From Acidobacteriota bacterium (GTDB lineage Bacteria > Acidobacteriota > UBA6911), in contig JAFGAO010000027.1 in NCBI GenBank assembly GCA_016933615.1, forward strand, positions 66,862 through 130,861: DNA of 64,000 nt, in the 5' to 3' direction. The notes under the pieces were generated by a model, which was given only the letters and a program-made list of their open reading frames with translations, did not search any database and was not told the origin of the DNA. The translations under genes were made by a program, and so were the position numbers. Numbering within the stretch: the first letter of the stretch is position 1; each line of letters begins with the position of its first letter. This document shows positions 35,644-60,618 of this stretch, piece after piece.

Positions 35644-38286
35644 TTGAGCAGCAGCGATACGATACGGCGGACTTTTTTGGACTATTTCAGGCGCAACGGG
35701 CACACCATCGTACCCAGTTCGTCCCTGATTCCTTTCAGCGACCCCACGCTTCTGTTTACCAATGCCGGGATGAACCAGTTCAAGGAGATTTTTCTGGGCA
35801 ACCGTCTGCCCCCCTACCGCCGAGCCTCCACCAGCCAGAAATGCATGCGCGTCAGCGGAAAACACAACGATTTCAAGGATGTCGGGCACTCAAGCCGGCA
35901 TCATACGTTCTTCGAAATGCTGGGCAATTTTTCCTTTGGGGACTACTTCAAAAAAGACGCCATTCATTTTGCATGGGAACTGCTCACCCGGGAGTTCGGG
36001 CTGGATCCGGAGCGTTTATGGGTAACCGTCTATGAAGACGACGACGAAGCCTACACTATCTGGAATTCCCAGGAGAAAATTCCTTCGCAGAAAATCCTGC
36101 GTCTCGGCGAAGCGGACAATTTCTGGGCAATGGGAGACACCGGACCCTGCGGACCCTGCTCCGAGCTCCATTTCGACCTGGGACGAAGCCCGCAGCCGGA
36201 TCACGGGGAGTGCGACTTGACCTGTTCCTGCGGCCGATGGATCGAGGTTTGGAACCTCGTATTCATGCAGTACAACCGCGATAGCGACGGCGGGATGCAT
36301 CCCCTTCCGGCCCCCTCCATCGATACCGGAATGGGTTTTGAACGGATCGCGACCATCCTTCAGGGAAAGAATTCCAACTACGACACCGATCTTTTTGCCC
36401 CCCTGATCGACGCCGTTTCCGAAATATCCGGACTCCGCTACGGAAGCAACCCGAACGACGACGTTTCGATGAAAATCATTGCGGACCATGTCCGGGCCGC
36501 CGCTTTCGTAATCGGCGACGGCCAGTACCCCGGGAACGACAAGCGCGGGTATGTCCTGCGCAAAATCATGAGGCGGGCCATCGTGCACGGGAAGCGGCTC
36601 GGAATCCAGGACCCCTTTCTGTACCGCGTTTCCGGCGCCGTTGTCGAAAAAATGAAAGCCGCCTACCCGGAACTTGTTCAAAACAGGGACACCATCGCCC
36701 GGGTCATCAAGCAGGAAGAGGATTCTTTCGCGGGCACCCTGCAAGAGGGACTCGAGGATTTCAACGAGCGGGTGAAAGTCATCAAGGCAAGGGGATCCCG
36801 CACAATGCCGGGAAATGAGGCGTTTTTTCTATACGATACCAGGGGCCTCCCGATTGAAATCATCGAGGATCTCGCCATGGAAAACGGCCTCGTTGTCGAC
36901 GAGGCCGGGTTTGCGAGTGCGCTCGAAAAACAGCAGGAACGTTCCCGCCGGGATTACCTTGCGGGCAAGGTCAACGAACAGGTCGCCCGGTCCGTATTCG
37001 ACGGGAGAACCAGTTTTGTCGGTTACGGACTGTCCGGTCCCACAAAAGCGACCGTCCGGGCGATCCTGGTGGAAGGAAAACGCTCGGAGCGCCTCGAGGC
37101 CGGACAGAAAGGCGAGCTGGTCCTGGATGCAACGCCTTTTTATGCCGAAGGCGGGGGCCAGGTTGGAGACACCGGATATCTCTGCAAAAGCGACAACTGC
37201 GCGCGGGTCGACAACACCGTCTATCAGGGTACGGCAATCGCGCATCACGTGGAGATGGAAAAAGGAAACCTCAATACAGGGGACGAGGTGGAAGCCGCGG
37301 TGGATCTGGCTAAACGGCATCGCACCATGAAAAACCATACCGCGACCCACCTTCTCCAGTCGGCGCTGCGCCGGGTTCTGGGAGACCATGTGAAGCAGGC
37401 CGGTTCCCTGGTTTCGCCGGATCGCCTCAGGTTCGATTTTGTCCACTATGCGCCCCTGACAACGGCTGAAATCCGGAAAATCGAGGATTCCGTCAATGAA
37501 TGCATCTGGAGCAACACGGATGTCGTAACCACAGTCATGGATTTGGACGGCGCCATGAAATCGGGCGCGGTCGCCCTTTTCGGCGAAAAGTACCAGGAGA
37601 GTGTCCGTGTTGTCGAAGTGCCCGGATTCAGCAAAGAGCTCTGCGGCGGCACCCACGTGCCTGCTACGGGATCCATAGGGCTTTTTAAAATAATAAGCGA
37701 AGCGGGGATTTCAGCAGGGATTCGCCGCGTCGAGGCCCTGACAGGCCCGGCCGCATTTGAAAGGTTCCGTTGCTGCGATGAGACTCTGGAGAACCTGCAG
37801 GCGGACCATAAAGTGTCCAGAAACGAAATCGATGCCTACATCAGAAAACTTCAAAGCACCATCCGGGAATTGCAGAGACAGAATCAGAGATTGCAGGCCA
37901 AATCCGCCAGGGCCAACATCGCGGACATGCTCGCCTCCGCCAGGGAAATTCAGGGCATTAAGGTTTTATCCGCTCAGGTTCCGACCATCGACCGGGCAGG
38001 CTTGCGAAACCTCGCCGATGAATTGAAACAGAAAATAGGATCGGGAGTTGTCATCCTAGGAACCGACCAAAACGGCAACGCAGCTCTGGTCGTCATGGTA
38101 ACGGGAGACATCAGCAAGAAAGCGCCGGCGGGTCAAATCATAAAAAAAATCGCTTCCATAGTAGACGGCGGCGGCGGCGGAAAACCTGAATTAGCCGAAG
38201 CCGGGGGTAAAGATTCCGCGAAATTGGCCGATGCTATCGAATACGGCTACTCGGTTGTCGAAGAAATCATGGGTAGCGAAGTTTGA
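35644..38286 (+). CDS. alaS: Alanine--tRNA ligase AlaS
   Basis: The 880 aa protein has class II motifs (FTNAGMNQFK), an editing domain with HxxxH...CGGTH, and a C-terminal DHHA1-like domain. Confidence 0.95.
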   Translation: MSSSDTIRRTFLDYFRRNGHTIVPSSSLIPFSDPTLLFTNAGMNQFKEIFLGNRLPPYRRASTSQKCMRVSGKHNDFKDVGHSSRHHTFFEMLGNFSFGDYFKKDAIHFAWELLTREFGLDPERLWVTVYEDDDEAYTIWNSQEKIPSQKILRLGEADNFWAMGDTGPCGPCSELHFDLGRSPQPDHGECDLTCSCGRWIEVWNLVFMQYNRDSDGGMHPLPAPSIDTGMGFERIATILQGKNSNYDTDLFAPLIDAVSEISGLRYGSNPNDDVSMKIIADHVRAAAFVIGDGQYPGNDKRGYVLRKIMRRAIVHGKRLGIQDPFLYRVSGAVVEKMKAAYPELVQNRDTIARVIKQEEDSFAGTLQEGLEDFNERVKVIKARGSRTMPGNEAFFLYDTRGLPIEIIEDLAMENGLVVDEAGFASALEKQQERSRRDYLAGKVNEQVARSVFDGRTSFVGYGLSGPTKATVRAILVEGKRSERLEAGQKGELVLDATPFYAEGGGQVGDTGYLCKSDNCARVDNTVYQGTAIAHHVEMEKGNLNTGDEVEAAVDLAKRHRTMKNHTATHLLQSALRRVLGDHVKQAGSLVSPDRLRFDFVHYAPLTTAEIRKIEDSVNECIWSNTDVVTTVMDLDGAMKSGAVALFGEKYQESVRVVEVPGFSKELCGGTHVPATGSIGLFKIISEAGISAGIRRVEALTGPAAFERFRCCDETLENLQADHKVSRNEIDAYIRKLQSTIRELQRQNQRLQAKSARANIADMLASAREIQGIKVLSAQVPTIDRAGLRNLADELKQKIGSGVVILGTDQNGNAALVVMVTGDISKKAPAGQIIKKIASIVDGGGGGKPELAEAGGKDSAKLADAIEYGYSVVEEIMGSEV

Positions 38287-38399: not shown

Positions 38400-39095
38400 A
38401 TGTTGCCCAAAATCGCCCTATCCCTGCTTTTGTTATCCTTAGCCCTTGCGTCTACGGCGGCCTTTGCAAGCGGCGAAGAATTCTTCACATACCATGACAA
38501 GAGCGGAGCGCAGGTGTTTACGAACATAGCGCCCGTATCGGCAGAAAATTCGGCGCATTATACTCCCCCGTTTGCGGACAATGAACGGATTTCGGCTCTC
38601 GGCAACGCAATCAACCGTCCCGATTCGCGGAATTTCGATCCTATAATAAAAAAATACGCCAGTTATTACGAGCTCGATCCTTCACTCATTCAATCGATAA
38701 TCGAAACGGAATCGGGCTTCAATCCCAATGCCGTTTCCTCCAAGGGCGCCCGGGGCCTAATGCAGCTGATGCCGGAAACAGCCAGGCGGTTGGGAGTGGA
38801 AAACAGCTTCGATCCGGAGCAGAACATCAAAGCCGGAGTGCGGCATTTTCGTTCCCTGATGGACATGTTCGATAACAATCTGGATTTGAGTCTCGCCGCC
38901 TACAATGCCGGCGAAAACCTGGTCCGGCGCCTGGGCCGGATTCCGGGATACGAAGAAACGATTAATTATGTCCGGTCCGTGACACGCCGATACAGAGAAA
39001 GGAGAGAAAACGTGCAGGTACAGGAAAACCGGACGTACCGTTATGTCGATGCCGCAGGAGTGCTCCATTTAACCAACATACCGCCGGCCCGCTGA
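38400..39095 (+). CDS. Soluble lytic transglycosylase-domain protein with signal peptide
   Basis: It has a signal peptide (MLPKIALSLLLLSLALASTAAFA) and the SLT catalytic motif (ESGFNPNAVSSKGARGLMQLMPETA...AYNAG). ATG 38400 is chosen over the TTG 38283 ORF start. Confidence 0.8.
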   Translation: MLPKIALSLLLLSLALASTAAFASGEEFFTYHDKSGAQVFTNIAPVSAENSAHYTPPFADNERISALGNAINRPDSRNFDPIIKKYASYYELDPSLIQSIIETESGFNPNAVSSKGARGLMQLMPETARRLGVENSFDPEQNIKAGVRHFRSLMDMFDNNLDLSLAAYNAGENLVRRLGRIPGYEETINYVRSVTRRYRERRENVQVQENRTYRYVDAAGVLHLTNIPPAR

Positions 39096-39281
39096 CCGCG
39101 GCAAAGTGCAATTCCGGGAACACGAGACGCAGCCGGATCTGGAGAGACCGTTACTTTTCGGAAAATAATGGGATCTCAAGCATCGGCAGTTCAATCCGAT
39201 CATACAATGTATGAATAAGGGGCAAACAGAAAAGATAGGCCGCAAATACCTTAATTATCAATAAGTTCTGTCAATATAACC

Positions 39282-39310
39282 TTGACTTTAAATTTCGTTA
39301 CCTTTATGAT
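39282..39310 (+). promoter_or_regulatory. Near-consensus sigma70 promoter TTGACT-17 nt-TATGAT upstream of the amidase gene
   Basis: TTGACTttaaatttcgttaccttTATGAT was read directly. The predicted transcription start (about 39317) coincides with ATG 39318, which implies a leaderless amidase mRNA. Confidence 0.35.
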
Positions 39311-39317
39311 TCGAATC

Positions 39318-41219
39318 ATGGATCAAGGCGTTTGCATCCCAAAAGGCTTTCGCGCATTGCCCTGCCTCCTCCTCCTTGCACTTTTTTCGGTCTCTACCGT
39401 TGAGGCCGGTCAATGGGATACCGCCGGAGCGGAGCTTGCGTTTGCGCAATCCGAAAAGGAGTGCGGCGAGCTCGAGCAGAAGCCGGATGCATCCGTTGAA
39501 GAGTATCTGCAATGCGCAAGATCCTTCCGAACGGTCTACACCCGGGATCCGCACTTCATCCTTGCTCCGGAAGCGGTTTATAAAGAGGGGCTCACATACC
39601 AGAAAATGGGGGATCTTTTCGCCCGGGCGGAATATTATCACCTGGCCGTGAAACGTTTCAATTTCCTGGTATCGGATTACGGCGGGAACGCGAACTGCCC
39701 GGACGCCTTAATGCGAATCTGGGACATCTCCACCGCTAAGCTGAAGGACCCGGACAAGGCGGAAGAAGCTTCCCGGATTCTTAAAGCGCATTACGGAAAT
39801 TCCGCAGTCAAATCTCCGGAAACCGCTTCCGTGTCGTCATCCCCCGGGCAATCCGAAAAGGAAACGGTTCAAAAGCCGGGCGATTCCAATCATACCGGCG
39901 GAAGAACGATGATACGCAACGTTCGCCACTGGTCTTCCAGGGATTACACGCGCCTGGTCATCGATATGGACTCCGATGCCCTATATGAAAAAGCGCTCCT
40001 CCATAATCCCGTCCGCATGTACTTCGATATTTCCGGCGCTACATTGTCCGATGGCCTGCACAACCGCACCCTCTCCATCCAGGACAGGTTCGTCAAACAG
40101 GTCCGGATAGCCCAGTACACGCCCGATACAGTCCGTATAGTGCTTGATTTTGCCCAGTTCAAGGCCTACTCGGTTTTTAAGCTCCAGAATCCCGACCGGA
40201 TCGTTATCGACCTGCACAATCTCCCCGGGGAGCAGGCAAAAGCCACAAAGCCAGAACCTGTGACTACAGGACGGTCCCCGAATACCCGGAAACCGTCCGA
40301 TATTGAGGATCCCGCCCCCGAAAGCGCGCGTTCCAGGGACTTTCCGGAGAACGACACACATTCAGGCGCCTCTGAAAATAAAGACACACGAAGCCTGGGC
40401 GGGAAAAAAGTCCTGATTTCGGACCTGGTCCTGAAAGACCTTCCCGACACGCCGAAAGAGGCGGAACCCACCGGTGCAGGAGAAAGAACCCTGACCCGCA
40501 TTCTCGGGCTGAAGATCGGGCGGATCGTGATAGATCCGGGGCACGGCGGGCACGATCTCGGGACTGTGGGTCCGGGCGGACTGCTGGAAAAAAACCTGGT
40601 TCTTTCCCTGGCTTTTAAACTGAAAAGCAAGCTGGAGCAGAGACTCGGAGCGGAAGTGATCCTGACGCGGGACAGGGATGTCTTCGTTTCCCTCGAGGAG
40701 CGCACGGAAATAGCAAATCAAGCTCGCGCGGATTTGTTCCTTTCCATCCATGCCAATTCAAGCCGGCAGCGTTCCACGAGCGGTGTAGAGACCTATTATC
40801 TTGATTTTGCCAATACCGGCCAGGAGCGGGAAGTGGCCGCCCGTGAAAATGCGGGGTCGGGAAACAGTATCCGCGACCTCGAAACCATGGTCCTTCAGAT
40901 TACCCGGGCGGACAAATCCGCCGAATCCAGAGAATTCGCCGCAGTGGTTCAGAAAAGACTCTACCGGAACGCTCGAACGATCTTTATATCCGCGCGGGAT
41001 CGCGGGGTAAGGCGGGCACCATTTGTTGTGTTAATAGGCGCCGACATGCCTTCGATCCTCACGGAAGTAGCCTTTCTCAGCAATCCGAAGGATGAAAAAG
41101 CTCTCGGAAGCGAGGAGAATCGCGAGCGGCTGGCGGAAGCGCTCTTTTCCGGCATCGAGGATTATATGAAGAAGCTGGGAAGTTACCCGATCGCCTACCG
41201 GGCCCTCCAAGATAAATGA
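39318..41219 (+). CDS. N-acetylmuramoyl-L-alanine amidase (Amidase_3, AmiC-like) with N-terminal signal peptide and AMIN-like region
   Basis: The C-terminal Amidase_3 motifs are present (IDPGHGGHDLG...LSIHANSS...VVLIGADMPSILTEVAFLSNPKDE). The start is ambiguous (TTG 39282, ATG 39306 or ATG 39318). ATG 39318 is chosen because of the overlapping promoter-like element. Confidence 0.8.
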   Translation: MDQGVCIPKGFRALPCLLLLALFSVSTVEAGQWDTAGAELAFAQSEKECGELEQKPDASVEEYLQCARSFRTVYTRDPHFILAPEAVYKEGLTYQKMGDLFARAEYYHLAVKRFNFLVSDYGGNANCPDALMRIWDISTAKLKDPDKAEEASRILKAHYGNSAVKSPETASVSSSPGQSEKETVQKPGDSNHTGGRTMIRNVRHWSSRDYTRLVIDMDSDALYEKALLHNPVRMYFDISGATLSDGLHNRTLSIQDRFVKQVRIAQYTPDTVRIVLDFAQFKAYSVFKLQNPDRIVIDLHNLPGEQAKATKPEPVTTGRSPNTRKPSDIEDPAPESARSRDFPENDTHSGASENKDTRSLGGKKVLISDLVLKDLPDTPKEAEPTGAGERTLTRILGLKIGRIVIDPGHGGHDLGTVGPGGLLEKNLVLSLAFKLKSKLEQRLGAEVILTRDRDVFVSLEERTEIANQARADLFLSIHANSSRQRSTSGVETYYLDFANTGQEREVAARENAGSGNSIRDLETMVLQITRADKSAESREFAAVVQKRLYRNARTIFISARDRGVRRAPFVVLIGADMPSILTEVAFLSNPKDEKALGSEENRERLAEALFSGIEDYMKKLGSYPIAYRALQDK

Positions 41220-42307
41220 GATCCCTTGCCCTTCTCTTCGCCATTTGCCTTGCGACCATGACCGCGATCGCGCAAATCGAGCTCGTCGCGGACAGCTATT
41301 TCCCGGCGGATCTCGAATTCGAGGAACTCCGGAAACTAACGTCTGAAGACCAGTTTTCCGATCCCTCCAAATTAACCGGTGTGGAAAACGGGGATCTGAT
41401 TGCGGATGTCGGCTTCGATACCTATGCGCAAAGGACATACAGTGCAGCCGGATCCGCAAGCCTGTCCATCGAAGTTGTGTCTCTGATAGATTCCCGGGCT
41501 GCGTTCTCCCTGCTGACTCTTCTGCGGACATCCGGGATACTGGAAGGGCCTCCCGGCGATGCCTTTGCATCCGCATCCGGCAGGCTCATTTTTTGCCGCG
41601 GGCGAAGATGGATCCGCATCCTGGGCAGCGGGATTCCCGACACGGTGCTCCTTCGCGTGGCCCGCTCGGTCAGCAACAGGATCGGCCCACCCGGGCAAGG
41701 TCTTCCCTCCCTTGTTTCACTTTTTCCCGAAAACGGCCTGGATATTTCGACGCTCCAGTATTTCCCGGGAACGAAAGCTTTCGAATCCCTTAGCGAACAA
41801 ACGACCGGCACCATTGTTTCCGTTCTTTACGACATGGAAATCGCCCGGGCCCATTATCGTGTGAATACCCAGTCGGGAATCCTGTCTCTGCTGAAATTTC
41901 CAACGCACCAGGTCGCCGAAGAGTATTTCAATGAAATTTCCCTGGCGCCCGTATACTCCGGAGCGGGCAAAAGAGCTTACTTGCGGAGAATCGGCCCCCT
42001 GATGTGCGTGCTGGAAGGCTCCTTCAGCGCCGATACCGCAGACGATATCCTCAAGCCCATTCAATACAGCTATTCCGTCAAGTGGATTTACGACAAAAGC
42101 TCCAAACCGGGCACGGTTTGGGGAATTCCGGTCAGCATTCTAGGGTCCACGGTGCTGGCATTTTTCATCGTCGTCGTGGCCTGCGTTCTTTCCATCCTGG
42201 CCGGCATGGTGCTCGCCGCCTGCAGGCTTCTGCTGCGTCGATTGTTTCCAAATAATCCTTTGGACGATCCTAAAAGAACCGAGATCACCAGGTTGAAACT
42301 GCCATGA
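41216..42307 (+). CDS. Hypothetical secreted/membrane-anchored protein (signal peptide and a C-terminal TM helix), translationally coupled to the amidase and crp
   Basis: The 363 aa protein has an N-terminal signal peptide (MRSLALLFAICLATMTAIAQ) and a C-terminal TM segment (VSILGSTVLAFFIVVVACVLSILAGMVLAA). It has ATGA overlaps with both flanking genes. I recognise no family for it. Confidence 0.5.
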   Translation: MRSLALLFAICLATMTAIAQIELVADSYFPADLEFEELRKLTSEDQFSDPSKLTGVENGDLIADVGFDTYAQRTYSAAGSASLSIEVVSLIDSRAAFSLLTLLRTSGILEGPPGDAFASASGRLIFCRGRRWIRILGSGIPDTVLLRVARSVSNRIGPPGQGLPSLVSLFPENGLDISTLQYFPGTKAFESLSEQTTGTIVSVLYDMEIARAHYRVNTQSGILSLLKFPTHQVAEEYFNEISLAPVYSGAGKRAYLRRIGPLMCVLEGSFSADTADDILKPIQYSYSVKWIYDKSSKPGTVWGIPVSILGSTVLAFFIVVVACVLSILAGMVLAACRLLLRRLFPNNPLDDPKRTEITRLKLP

Positions 42308-42972
42308 AAGTAGACCAGATTCGCAAGGTTCCCCTTTTTTCCACACTGACGGACGCGGAATTCAGTGCGTTGCAGCATATTTTCATCCTGAGGTCCTATC
42401 GCAGAAACCAGATTATCTTCCTGGAAGAAGAGACCGGGAATTACATGTATCTGGTGCTTACCGGAAAGGTAAAGGTGGCCAAGTCCAGTTCTTCGGGGCG
42501 GGAAACCATACTGGCCATTCATAAAGCCGGAGATTTTTTCGGGGAGATGTCCCTGCTGGACGGCAAAACCGCGCCGGCGACCGTTTCCGCTATGGAGGAT
42601 TCCAAGATCATTTCAGTCAGCGGCACGGATTTTCACAAATACCTGATGCACAACGAGAAGGTCCTCCTGCAGATCATCGACGTTCTGTGCGCCCGCCTAC
42701 GCCAGGTCTGGCAGACGCAGAGCCTGAGCTCGAGCAAGGCAGACGCCAAGATCCGAAGAGGGATTCATGATCTGGCGAAACGTCACGGGATCCAGGATGC
42801 ACACGGAACGATCATTGATCTGAAAATAACACACCAGGAACTTGCTGAAATGGTGGGAACTTCAAGGGAAACCGTTACCCGGGTCATCGCCCGTCTCCGG
42901 AAAGAAGGAATCCTCGAAGTGGACCACCGCCGCATGACGCTTCTGGATCCCCAGGCGCTGCTCAAAGAATAG
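42304..42972 (+). CDS. Crp/Fnr family transcriptional regulator
   Basis: A cNMP-binding domain (YMYLVLTGKVKV...GDFFGEMSLL) is followed by a C-terminal HTH (LAEMVGTSRETVTRVI). Confidence 0.8.
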   Translation: MKVDQIRKVPLFSTLTDAEFSALQHIFILRSYRRNQIIFLEEETGNYMYLVLTGKVKVAKSSSSGRETILAIHKAGDFFGEMSLLDGKTAPATVSAMEDSKIISVSGTDFHKYLMHNEKVLLQIIDVLCARLRQVWQTQSLSSSKADAKIRRGIHDLAKRHGIQDAHGTIIDLKITHQELAEMVGTSRETVTRVIARLRKEGILEVDHRRMTLLDPQALLKE

Positions 42973-43071: not shown

Positions 43072-44883
43072 CTAAATGAACACGGCTTCCCGCCATCTGC
43101 GGACGGAATTGATCAGATAAATGCTCTTGAAATTTTTTCTGTCGGCAACATGCAGAACGCGTTCCCGGATTTTGCCTTGATCCAGCAGGCAGGCCCGGAA
43201 AACACCTCTCAGGAGCCCCGAGTCCGCAGGGGGCGTTACCAGTTCCCCGTCCATTTCCACTACAAGGTTCGCGACAGAGGATTCGGTGAACTCCCCTCTT
43301 TCATTCCATAACAGAACGTCGTCGCATCCGGGACATCCGAGCCGGGCGGATTCGTAGGTATCTCGGAAAGTGGTCTTATGGTAAAGGAAAATGTTATTGG
43401 AATTTACGGGCTTTGAGGCGATCCCGACTTTCATGGGCTCAGGGGAAGCCGGGGCAGGCAAGGGCGAGGACTGGATCTGAATGGAACCGTTCCGGTCCAG
43501 CAGTAGACGGACCTTCCGGTCCGCATCCGGGAAAAAGGCGGCTTTTCCGTGCAGCGCGTTTCTTATAACCCCGATACGGGCGGGATAATCGAAGTAAGCG
43601 GCCGAATCCTCCAGCCTCTTCATATGGTAATCCAGCAAAAAATATCCCTGCCCCGGCGTCCACAGCAACGTTTCCATCAGGGAGAAATCGGGCCTTTGTT
43701 CCGTCAGTATGCGCGCTTTCAATATCGCCTCGGTATATTCATCCTCGCCCTCCGAATCCCAGACAATGCCCCCTCCGGTTCCGTATTCGGCCGTCTCACG
43801 GACCCGGTCGACGACCGCGGTTCTGATGGCGACATTGAACTGAGCGCAGGGGCCCGGACCGATGTACCCGATACAGCCCGTGTATATATTTCGAGGCGAA
43901 TTTTCAAGATCCGCGATGATGCGCATGGTTTGGATTTTTGGAGCGCCCGTGATAGAGGCGGATGGAAAAAGCGCGGCCAGGATCTCGGCCAGGGGTTTTC
44001 GGGTGTCCGCCCGTATGGTCGAGGTCATCTGCCACAGTGTCGGGTGGCGCTCCACTTCAAAAAGCCTTTCCACCTCGACGCTCCCGGCCTCGGCGACGCG
44101 CCCCAGATCGTTCCGTATCATGTCCACGATCATCAGGTTTTCCGCCCGGTTTTTCTCGGAGCTTTGGAGCCATCCGGCCAGAGATTCATCTTCTCCTAGC
44201 GTTCGCCCCCGCCGGACGGTTCCCTTCATCGGCTTGCATGTCAGCCGGTTTCGCCGCAGATCGAAAAAAAGCTCCGGTGAAGCGGAACAGATCGCGTAAC
44301 GTCCGGTATCCACCCATGCGGAGTACCCCGGGTTTTGTGCCCGCACCATCGACAGAAAGAGATTCCAGGGGTCCCGCGCGAATGCAGCGCGGAGCAGAAA
44401 CGTGTAATTGACCTGATAGGTATCCCCCGCACGGATGCGCTCCTTGATTTCGGCTATCGCGCCGAAATAGTCGGGTTTGCCTATGGAAGGAGCCCATTCG
44501 CCCATGGAATACGCGCTTCTTTGGGGTGCGGGAAGGCGGATCGGTTCCGGAGGCGGATACAGCCCAAACCAGAGCAAAGGGAAATCAGCGGACCTCCCGG
44601 TGCGCATTGCCCCGTCGAAAGCGGCCGCCGCTTCATAACTGATGAATCCGGCCGCATAAATCCCCCCTTCCCTTACCTGGGTTTCGATATTTTCTAGGCA
44701 CGGCCGAACCTGTTCCACCTTTGTTGCTTCTATAATCCGGAGCGGATTTTTGAAGCAGAGCCATTGCGAAGCGGAATGGTTGTGGATAATAATTTGTTGC
44801 TGGATCTCGGCAGCGGACATACCCACCTTCCGGTCCCCTTTCTCAATACTCAATGTCGGAATCGAGGCGCAGGCAGGTTCCAT
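43072..44883 (-). CDS. Bifunctional aminodeoxychorismate synthase component I / aminodeoxychorismate lyase (PabB-PabC fusion)
   Basis: The N-terminal 400 aa is a chorismate-binding enzyme (SPELFFDLRRNRLTCKPMKGT...GAPK...GGGIV). The C-terminal 200 aa is class IV aminotransferase-like (YHKTTFRDTYE; NSVRRW). Confidence 0.8.
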   Translation of the reverse strand: MEPACASIPTLSIEKGDRKVGMSAAEIQQQIIIHNHSASQWLCFKNPLRIIEATKVEQVRPCLENIETQVREGGIYAAGFISYEAAAAFDGAMRTGRSADFPLLWFGLYPPPEPIRLPAPQRSAYSMGEWAPSIGKPDYFGAIAEIKERIRAGDTYQVNYTFLLRAAFARDPWNLFLSMVRAQNPGYSAWVDTGRYAICSASPELFFDLRRNRLTCKPMKGTVRRGRTLGEDESLAGWLQSSEKNRAENLMIVDMIRNDLGRVAEAGSVEVERLFEVERHPTLWQMTSTIRADTRKPLAEILAALFPSASITGAPKIQTMRIIADLENSPRNIYTGCIGYIGPGPCAQFNVAIRTAVVDRVRETAEYGTGGGIVWDSEGEDEYTEAILKARILTEQRPDFSLMETLLWTPGQGYFLLDYHMKRLEDSAAYFDYPARIGVIRNALHGKAAFFPDADRKVRLLLDRNGSIQIQSSPLPAPASPEPMKVGIASKPVNSNNIFLYHKTTFRDTYESARLGCPGCDDVLLWNERGEFTESSVANLVVEMDGELVTPPADSGLLRGVFRACLLDQGKIRERVLHVADRKNFKSIYLINSVRRWREAVFI

Positions 44884-59978: not shown

Positions 59979-60015
59979 TCTTGACAAGAATTTTGAATCT
60001 GTCTAGCCTTACGCC

Positions 60016-60618
60016 ATGTTAAGCAACTGGATCGGACGCGGCGGCAAATTCATCCTGAATAAAATTGTCAGGCTCCTGACTCTTTTAAAAATAAATCCCA
60101 ACATAATCACCTTTACAGGCGTCCTGATCAGTCTCTGGGCTGCGTTTGAGTTCGGCTACGGAAGTTTGCGCAAGGGGGGGCTGATTATCATCCTTGCGGG
60201 ACTTTTCGACATGCTCGACGGGGAAGTCGCCAGGGTCAGCCGGACCGAAACGCGGTTTGGCGCGTTTTACGACTCGGTGATCGACCGTTACTCGGATATT
60301 ATCATCCTACAGGGTTTGCTGGTTTATTACGCACGGCATCAAATGCTGGGATACATCGTTCTTGTGGGCGTCGTAATCATGGGAGCGGTTTTGACCAGTT
60401 ACACCAGGGCCAGGGCCGAATCCCTGATTCTGCGCTGCAAAGTCGGATTTATGGAGCGTCCAGAAAGGATCGTACTGCTGATCATCGGCGGGCTGGCAAA
60501 CCGCATGGAAGCGGTTCTGTGGATCCTGGCGATCCTGGGAAACTGGACCGTGATAAGCCGTATTTATTATACGTGGAAAGAGCTTCCGAAACCGACCCCC
60601 CCGGCGCGCACCTCATAA
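60016..60618 (+). CDS. CDP-alcohol phosphatidyltransferase family protein
   Basis: The signature D-G-x2-A-R-x8-G-x3-D-x3-D (DMLDGEVARVSRTETRFGAFYDSVIDRYSD) is present in a 200 aa polytopic protein. Confidence 0.75.
   Translation: MLSNWIGRGGKFILNKIVRLLTLLKINPNIITFTGVLISLWAAFEFGYGSLRKGGLIIILAGLFDMLDGEVARVSRTETRFGAFYDSVIDRYSDIIILQGLLVYYARHQMLGYIVLVGVVIMGAVLTSYTRARAESLILRCKVGFMERPERIVLLIIGGLANRMEAVLWILAILGNWTVISRIYYTWKELPKPTPPARTS

Follow-up and report, generated by a model that had tools for sequence, protein, structure and literature searches.

A conserved acidobacterial operon of an AMIN-domain amidase, a DUF6599 membrane protein and a Crp-family regulator behind a leaderless-type promoter

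Gene content of the locus

We analysed a stretch of 64,000 nucleotides (nt) from the metagenome-assembled genome of an uncultured Acidobacteriota bacterium (contig JAFGAO010000027.1; in the following the window) with respect to three consecutive genes, which encode a peptidoglycan amidase, a protein of the Pfam family DUF6599 and a regulator of the Crp/Fnr family. With moderate confidence we take this trio for a conserved acidobacterial cell-envelope operon, in which the amidase is made from a leaderless message and the DUF6599 protein may act as a partner of the amidase. The genes and their junctions are located in the window as follows (protein lengths in amino acids, aa; assignments from Pfam):

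39318-41219, + strand: amidase with AMIN and Amidase_3 domains, 633 aa
41216-41219, + strand: ATGA, in which the amidase stop codon overlaps the DUF6599 start codon
41216-42307, + strand: DUF6599 protein, 363 aa, PF20244
42304-42307, + strand: ATGA, in which the DUF6599 stop codon overlaps the Crp start codon
42304-42972, + strand: Crp/Fnr-family regulator, 222 aa

All three genes lie on one strand, and the stop/start overlaps of sequence ATGA that a previous inspection of the DNA (in the following the sequence-only reading) had placed at 41216 and 42304 are both present. The DUF6599 and Crp cistrons have no Shine-Dalgarno (SD) sequence. On the + strand no terminator-like site was found from the upstream SLT-type transglycosylase gene to the Crp gene, save a weak one within the DUF6599 gene. 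In a crude survey with uncurated start codons, SD-like motifs were seen before about one third of the longest-open-reading-frame starts in the window, which suggests that weak SD usage may be general in this organism.

For comparison we used a set of 98 related loci, some of them near-duplicates, with counts given by locus and individual loci named by their L numbers. A scan of a genome collection with a single protein provided 5 loci only, while a metagenome scan with an alignment gave far more.

Promoter and start of the amidase message

The region in front of the amidase gene contains the following features:

39096-39317: intergenic region between the SLT and amidase genes, AT-rich, 222 nt
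39249-39268, + strand: CCTTAATTATCAATAAGTTC, a conserved box of 20 bp that spans -69 to -50 as counted from the ATG
39282-39287, + strand: -35 hexamer TTGACT, with TTGAC invariant in 27/27 orthologous loci that have upstream sequence
39305-39310, + strand: -10 hexamer TATGAT, separated by 17 nt from the -35 hexamer and by 7 nt from the ATG, with TAnnnT in place in 27/27 loci
39318-39320, + strand: amidase ATG, predicted transcription start (leaderless)

The sequence-only reading had seen a near-perfect sigma70 promoter at 39282-39310. Its coordinates are right: the element TTGACT-17-TATGAT matches the consensus at 10 of 12 positions and is the best match within 6.5 kb. Taken alone such matches are not significant, with 6 promoter-like sites in the region versus 3.3 ± 1.7 in shuffled sequences. 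The pattern is, however, conserved. All 27 loci that provide enough upstream DNA and the amidase N-terminus carry TTGAC[AT]-17(18)-TAnnnT-6/7-ATG in the frame of the amidase, with variable sequence in the spacer, and the exact 17/7 register is found in 18 of 22 unique promoter sequences. In the promoter alignment the information content amounts to about 2 bits at TTGAC, TA, AT and ATG, and to about 0 bits across the spacer. A like geometry (TTGACA-18-TAAAAT-7-ATG) precedes the amidase gene of L096, which stands in an unrelated context.

The start codon itself is ATG in 27/27 loci, with a conserved C just before its A, and no SD-like motif is present upstream of 39318. The equivalent of ATG 39318 is the sole possible start in 8 of 23 unique loci, where a stop codon in frame lies just upstream. 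Use of TTG 39282 or ATG 39306 as start had been named as an outcome that would contradict a leaderless message, and both starts fail across the relatives: TTG 39282 lies in the -35 hexamer, and in 9 of 23 unique loci a stop codon in frame severs it from the gene, and ATG 39306 arises only where the -10 box reads TATGAT. With register and ATG conserved across the loci and other starts impossible in some of them, the proposed leaderless or nearly leaderless amidase mRNA is a well supported prediction. For the phylum such a start is unsurprising, because for 3/3 Acidobacteria genomes Zheng et al. arrived at a predicted share of leaderless genes of 9.7-19.4%, with 13.3% for the Acidobacteria (PMC3160421).

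An alternative explanation is that the promoter-like site is nonfunctional and that the amidase is translated from a leadered transcript, which derives from AlaRS/SLT read-through or from another promoter and is read from ATG 39306 or TTG 39282. This would be in agreement with the intergenic region of 222 nt, where no intrinsic terminator was found, such that read-through from the SLT gene is possible; this point speaks against a leaderless message. The reading frame is furthermore open from 39255 in the window, the consensus matches alone do not exceed chance, and SD motifs are weak genome-wide, hence a missing SD is not diagnostic. However, conservation covers the hexamers, their spacing and the ATG, but neither the spacer sequence nor the putative extra codons. 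The upstream starts are lost to stop codons in frame in 8-9 of 23 unique loci, and the dependence of ATG 39306 on a TATGAT box likewise argues against a longer reading frame. We regard a leadered transcript as quite improbable.

The box CCTTAATTATCAATAAGTTC upstream of the promoter occurs 1 time in the window, where 0.03 occurrences would be expected by chance. With 0 mismatches it is found once per locus in 12 loci, always upstream of the amidase, and in the promoter alignment its conservation is at least that of the promoter hexamers. The box is probably a binding site for a protein, as judged from this pattern. Its position shifts in some relatives, being 11 bp nearer to the promoter in L034 and 25 bp farther in the L037 group. 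A reading of the box as a Crp/FNR palindrome was discarded: only the left-central TTnTCAA and GTTC are conserved, with no symmetric pair of half-sites. The box resembles WATCAANNNNTTR, the presumed IHF core. No significant Rfam match to a structured RNA was obtained for the intergenic region (best E 0.94), which also holds no inverted repeats, and the box is part of no hairpin.

Elsewhere in the window, a second promoter of the leaderless type (TTGACA-17-TAGCCT-6-ATG) was seen at 59979-60018. It directly precedes a gene for a CDP-alcohol phosphatidyltransferase (60016-60618) and lies 38 nt past a gene with an MlaD domain.

The amidase

The amidase matches the Pfam families Amidase_3 (1.9e-51) and AMIN (PF11741, 1.9e-16). 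It begins with a signal peptide (aa 1-30), in agreement with a hydrophobic N-terminus in the hydropathy plot, followed by a TPR region (aa ~62-163), the AMIN domain (aa 201-300), a low-complexity linker and the Amidase_3 domain (aa 403-614). Among the PDB entries, E. coli AmiC (4BIN) aligns end to end over the AMIN and catalytic domains with 8.5e-39, and AmiA (8C2O) aligns end to end as well. The score of 158.8 bits against the NCBIfam model NF038267 stays below its cut-off of 700, such that the protein does not qualify as an orthologue of E. coli AmiC. The zinc ligands in GHGG..E..SIHAN align with those of AmiC and AmiA, and the fourth ligand position is Asn in place of Asp ('HAN', not 'HAD') in all orthologues.

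Within the catalytic domain the alignments delineate one further feature:

40809-40937, + strand: regulatory insertion of the amidase, aa 498-540, aligned in AmiC 4BIN and AmiA 8C2O and skipped by Nostoc AmiC2 5EMI

In this insertion 'VAARENAG' aligns with the Glu167 region of the AmiA blocking helix ('SERENRAD') and 'DLETMVLQI' with the hydrophobic interaction helix of AmiA ('DKDHLLQQV'). In the regulatory domain of AmiA, Glu167 of the blocking helix latches onto the zinc, and the interaction helix docks into the LytM groove of EnvC (PMC10268282). Because the AmiA/B/C regulatory segment is retained, the amidase is very probably autoinhibited and dependent on an activator, as far as the alignment tells.

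The TPR region at aa 62-163 (39501-39806), fused in front of the AMIN domain, is weakly similar to YbgF (CpoB) and BamD. The NCBIfam values of 2.6e-5 for YbgF and 3.3e-5 for BamD are both under the cut-off, and the N-terminus of the L089 amidase matches YfiO/TPR_6.

The DUF6599 protein

The middle protein had been called uncharacterised, but it is not without a family. It is a member of Pfam DUF6599 (PF20244) with 34.0 bits at a gathering threshold of 27 (E 2.8e-8), and all 80 aligned homologues match DUF6599 and no other Pfam family. It is 100% identical to the entry 'hypothetical protein JW793_01350 [Acidobacteria bacterium]', and one relative carries the NCBI label 'DUF6599 family protein'. 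We obtained 177 homologues and, with a profile search, 1333 representative clusters, mostly of equal length and architecture. All relatives with a taxon name are Acidobacteriota, Terriglobales included. Our search of the literature returned no mention of DUF6599.

The protein consists of a signal peptide (aa 1-19, cleavage AIA|Q), a periplasmic alpha/beta domain (aa ~25-295), a WGxP motif with a membrane helix (aa ~300-342) and a cytoplasmic tail. The signal peptide and the C-terminal membrane anchor that the sequence-only reading had assigned to it were recovered: hydropathy gives hydrophobic segments at aa 1-25 and 300-342, and AlphaFold2 predicts both as helices. The cleavage site AxA|Q is conserved among the homologues, and so are arginines past the membrane helix, which lead into a tail ending ..TEITRLKLP. 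We considered that the tail might be kept only where a Crp gene follows; it is kept everywhere, and hence gives no argument for a contact with Crp.

The AlphaFold2 model has a predicted local distance difference test (pLDDT) value of 83 over the full length. For the periplasmic domain (~280 aa) the pLDDT is 88.8 and the predicted TM-score (pTM) 0.85. Its best Foldseek match is TP0453 with E 5.7e-5 and TM-scores of only 0.26-0.29, and RseB (8e-3), MucB and the PknH sensor domain follow as weaker matches, with a TM-score of at most 0.3 over the whole domain. The viral structure library yielded no match. On the level of sequence, the protein had no match in NCBIfam, the best E against PDB sequence profiles was 1.2, and an internal duplication that would link its two lobes was rejected with an hhalign probability of 0.3%. 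There is no His or Cys among the invariant or nearly invariant residues, which suggests binding rather than hydrolysis as the possible function of DUF6599.

The Crp/Fnr-family regulator

The third protein matches the Pfam families cNMP_binding (PF00027, 3.2e-25), HTH_Crp_2 (PF13545, 4.9e-19) and PF00325 (3.9e-10). Its effector domain (aa 30-116) contains the pocket GKT[AS]PAT, and its helix-turn-helix (HTH) domain (aa 156-220) contains TSRETVTR, a recognition helix that we take to resemble RETVGR of E. coli CRP. In the PDB, M. tuberculosis CRP and GlxR come nearest (~1e-23), and the NCBIfam CRP model gives 95 bits at a cut-off of 266.

In the alignment 'PRTS' of M. tuberculosis CRP stands opposite 'TAPA' of the regulator, such that the Arg-Ser/Thr of the phosphate cassette is missing. 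The motif GDFFGEMSLLDGKT[AS]PATV, with T[AS]P in place of the Arg-Thr/Ser for the cyclic phosphate, is invariant in 46 orthologues, in which the HTH motif is conserved as well. The only Cys of the protein is at position 129, and the N-terminal Cys cluster with which FNR holds its [4Fe-4S] cluster is missing. Because the binding Arg is replaced and only one Cys is present, the regulator is predicted to be neither a canonical cAMP/cGMP sensor nor a redox sensor of the FNR type. Thus, from the former description as a 'cyclic-nucleotide or redox-type' regulator the Crp/Fnr family holds, whereas the canonical cyclic-nucleotide or redox type had to be given up.

Between genomes in which the DUF6599 proteins share about 45% identity, the Crp-like protein keeps about 80%, and it is probably a conserved global regulator. 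Autoregulation by Crp, for which its recognition helix would predict sites of the TGTGA type, was considered and dropped: no TGTGA-type site is found near the operon, and the window holds 7 such sites versus 14.4 in shuffled sequences.

Conservation of the trio and its junctions

The trio is conserved in the related loci, for which its co-occurrence had been proposed as a check. The amidase gene is directly upstream of the DUF6599 gene in 64 of 73 informative loci, and the Crp gene directly downstream of it in 63 of 71. The two junctions behave differently. DUF6599 and Crp reading frames overlap in 59 of 63 loci, with distances of -4 (31 loci), -11 (26), -1 (2), +13 (3) and +116 (1). At the amidase-DUF6599 junction we found -4 (18 loci), 0 (18) and +10 to +304 nt (28), where the division between -4 and 0 is a rough one, as a heuristic was used to set the DUF6599 start. 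An obligatory co-translation of amidase and DUF6599, as suggested from the overlap in the window, is therefore not borne out; because of the different spacings it fits DUF6599 and Crp better, whose overlap is nearly constant.

The long amidase-DUF6599 spacers of L036/L048 and L037/L040/L075/L082 contain either the tandemly repeated unit ttcgtgtaa (x3-4) or, as a long inverted repeat, aaggggtcaaggggcagaggg ... ccctttgcccttgacccctt. By their appearance these repeats look like inserted repetitive extragenic elements. A separate promoter within the long spacers was sought in the relatives, which yielded repeat insertions only and no promoter-like site. In L007 (951-3591) the AlaRS gene is in several frame-shifted pieces and the amidase stops 304 nt before DUF6599. 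These breaks are probably assembly or sequencing errors, such that the junction lengths of L007 are unreliable.

The trio is embedded in a larger set of neighbours, which in the window (Pfam assignments) are:

35644-38286, + strand: AlaRS
38400-39095, + strand: SLT-type lytic transglycosylase with a signal peptide from ATG 38400 (SLT 1.4e-31, weak DUF4124 match)
43072-44883, - strand: PabB-like/aminodeoxychorismate lyase-like fusion with chorismate-binding and aminotransferase class IV domains, in a single open reading frame of 603 aa

The SLT transglycosylase is a conserved upstream neighbour of the amidase, and FtsY and the PabB fusion are on the - strand, convergent with the trio. The fusion of PabB-like and aminotransferase class IV domains in one reading frame (43072-44883) is kept in related loci. 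The whole block RecX-AlaRS-SLT-amidase-DUF6599-Crp, convergent with PabB-FtsY-BPL-ValRS, is syntenic at DUF6599 identities of 37-70%. The gene order was previously thought not to be a standard arrangement; within this acidobacterial lineage it is standard and part of a wider conserved block.

Of 8 more distant contexts, 4 keep the amidase link and 1 keeps the Crp link. L096 has the order GYD-amidase-2 nt-DUF6599-6 nt-rhomboid, with AlaRS, SLT and Crp gone. L089 and L094/L095 have SLT-amidase-DUF6599 without Crp, and in L098 the amidase lies 4.8 kb from DUF6599.

Proposed mechanism and role of DUF6599

The operon would work as follows. A sigma-70-type promoter together with the upstream box would place the transcription start on the A of ATG 39318 or no more than one base away from it, and the amidase would be translated from the resulting leaderless mRNA. 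With ATGA junctions and no SD, the DUF6599 and Crp cistrons would most likely be read by terminating and re-initiating ribosomes, which would tie their expression to that of the amidase. The predicted products are a secreted amidase, targeted to the septum by AMIN and carrying the autoinhibitory segment of AmiA/B/C; a type-I inner-membrane DUF6599 protein, whose alpha/beta domain (~280 aa, non-enzymatic) faces the periplasm and whose short conserved tail lies in the cytoplasm; and a Crp-family DNA-binding protein, the effector pocket of which would not allow canonical binding of cyclic nucleotides. As a partner anchored in the membrane, DUF6599 could then position or regulate the cleavage of septal peptidoglycan together with the amidase and perhaps with the adjacent lytic transglycosylase. 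For the Crp-like regulator, co-expression is more probable than a mechanistic coupling.

That DUF6599 works with the amidase in the periplasm is a tentative assignment, which we consider possible but short of probable. It is suggested by the adjacency of the two genes that persists in distant relatives and other contexts (L096, L089, L094/L095, L098).

Several observations weigh against such a partnership. AlaRS and FtsY are equally conserved neighbours, and much of the conservation of the trio may be plain synteny; as the whole neighbourhood is syntenic, conservation alone is weak evidence of a functional link. Every junction is broken in some lineage. L005 has DUF6599 followed by an orthologous Crp gene in a different neighbourhood without the amidase. 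Neither amidase nor Crp is present in the readable flanks of L097, L087 and L090, of which L087 ends just past DUF6599 and L090 starts just before it. In 8 loci DUF6599 directly follows AlaRS, with neither amidase nor Crp, and L002 and L057 have no Crp. DUF6599 genes without an adjacent amidase count against an activator role in particular. So does the retained LytM-docking interaction helix of the amidase, which argues that a classical LytM activator is encoded elsewhere in the genome. A LytM domain is absent from DUF6599 itself (Pfam, 80/80 members; no match in NCBIfam). Finally, no solved structure convincingly matched DUF6599 in the PDB fold search, where full-length and domain-only models gave the same weak matches.

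The metagenomic loci in which DUF6599 directly follows AlaRS (L055, L056, L058, L061, L066, L068, L070, L081) lack SLT as well, and in L056 ScpB and ScpA converge from downstream of DUF6599. A Peptidase_M23 (LytM) gene was not found among the 45 open reading frames of the window compared with Pfam, a region of 64 kb that cannot speak for the genome.

A rival explanation is that there is no specific link between the three genes: they would be part of an inherited housekeeping block, DUF6599 would have an independent role in the envelope, and the compact overlaps would be the norm of the genome. The synteny of the block, the broken junctions, the 8 loci with DUF6599 alone beside AlaRS and the tolerance of the amidase-DUF6599 spacers to insertions of repeat elements are all in agreement with it. 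Such a block would not readily account for L096, in which amidase and DUF6599 stay at a spacing of 2 nt though AlaRS, SLT and Crp are gone, for the recurrence of DUF6599-Crp in the different neighbourhood of L005, or for stop/start codon overlaps that are maintained across ~60 loci. Overall we judge the absence of a specific link to be less likely than not.

The tight DUF6599-Crp junction allows for another explanation, namely a pair that signals across the membrane: the periplasmic domain of DUF6599 would sense an envelope cue, and the membrane protein would in turn control the Crp-like regulator in the cytoplasm, with the amidase as a mere upstream neighbour. The logic would resemble that of RseB/RseA holding sigma-E, or the sequestration of a transcription factor at the membrane. 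Overlaps of -4, -11 or -1 in 59 of 63 loci are far tighter than the amidase junction, and L005 keeps DUF6599 and Crp without the amidase and with an unchanged Crp pocket GKTxPAT. A pocket without the cyclic-nucleotide Arg would need another input, the cytoplasmic tail of DUF6599 is conserved, and the weak fold matches are periplasmic sensor or lipid-binding proteins (RseB, MucB, PknH sensor domain). However, the tail ..[IT]RL[KRN][LIM] is equally conserved where Crp is missing (L002, L055-L070, L087-L090), 7 of the 8 distant contexts are without Crp, the fold matches do not exceed a TM-score of 0.3 over the whole domain, and no CRP-type site near the operon would close a feedback loop. We hold a signalling pair to be unlikely. 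The far-reaching combination, in which DUF6599 is the first of a new class of non-LytM amidase regulators and its tail reports the state of septal cleavage to a cyclic-nucleotide-independent Crp protein, appears highly improbable.

With the envelope operon as the favoured account, the trio is a lineage-typical, previously undescribed operon variant. Acidobacteria are a dominant phylum in soil. How peptidoglycan amidases are controlled has been worked out mostly for Proteobacteria, with their LytM activators, and for Firmicutes, with ActH and GerS; to our knowledge nothing is known about it in Acidobacteria. The presence of DUF6599 beside an autoinhibited AMIN-amidase in dozens of acidobacterial loci makes it a testable candidate for a new amidase partner. 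The strict geometry of the promoter is among the cleaner cases in the phylum of a leaderless mRNA recognised from sequence only, and could help to calibrate the prediction of gene starts. If DUF6599 does regulate the amidase and signal to Crp, the operon would hold a direct circuit from cell-wall hydrolysis to transcription. If the genes are linked by inherited synteny only, it is an ordinary conserved housekeeping operon.

Comparison with known systems

The amidase shares with E. coli AmiA, AmiB and AmiC the Amidase_3 domain, the aligned His, Glu and His zinc ligands, the blocking Glu in 'REN' and the interaction helix, and with AmiB and AmiC the AMIN domain for septal targeting. It differs from all three by the YbgF/BamD-like TPR region that is joined to AMIN. 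Unlike the LytM activators EnvC (on FtsEX) and NlpD, the product of the gene next to the amidase is a DUF6599 protein and not a LytM protein.

A precedent for activation by other proteins is provided by ActH, which activates the Amidase_3 enzyme LytH in S. aureus (PMC9245657), and by GerS, which activates the Amidase_3 enzyme CwlD in C. difficile (PMC8496864). Neither is a LytM protein. Both are membrane- or lipid-anchored proteins of unrelated fold, which bind their enzyme outside the cytoplasm and are required for its activity. By sequence, the PDB relatives of the amidase described here include LytH and CwlD, both of which lack its blocking-helix segment of the AmiA/B/C type. DUF6599 is furthermore unlike ActH in having no TPR or rhomboid domain, and both GerS and ActH are absent from its top 50 fold matches. 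Partner binding is established for ActH and GerS and is a proposal for DUF6599. As a separate observation, the order amidase-DUF6599-rhomboid of L096 (1988-5094) recalls the rhomboid domain that ActH likewise holds (PMC9245657), which may be a coincidence.

The top Foldseek matches RseB/MucB and TP0453, periplasmic sensor or lipid-binding proteins, are all envelope proteins like DUF6599. The similarity is limited to TM-scores of 0.2-0.3 at a root-mean-square deviation of ~16 Å, with no similarity found in sequence, and DUF6599 is itself membrane-anchored, unlike these proteins.

With M. tuberculosis CRP (Rv3676), C. glutamicum GlxR and E. coli CRP the regulator has the two-domain architecture in common, while the Arg-Thr/Ser of their cyclic-nucleotide cassette is replaced by the invariant T[AS]P.

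Leaderless mRNAs are known from Actinobacteria and Deinococcus and have been predicted for Acidobacteria. They resemble the present case in a TAnnnT element 6-7 nt before an ATG that is also the transcription start, and in the lack of an SD sequence. The present case is a prediction from conservation. It also differs in what follows the amidase, as the message would bear two more cistrons, which would be translated by coupling through their overlaps.

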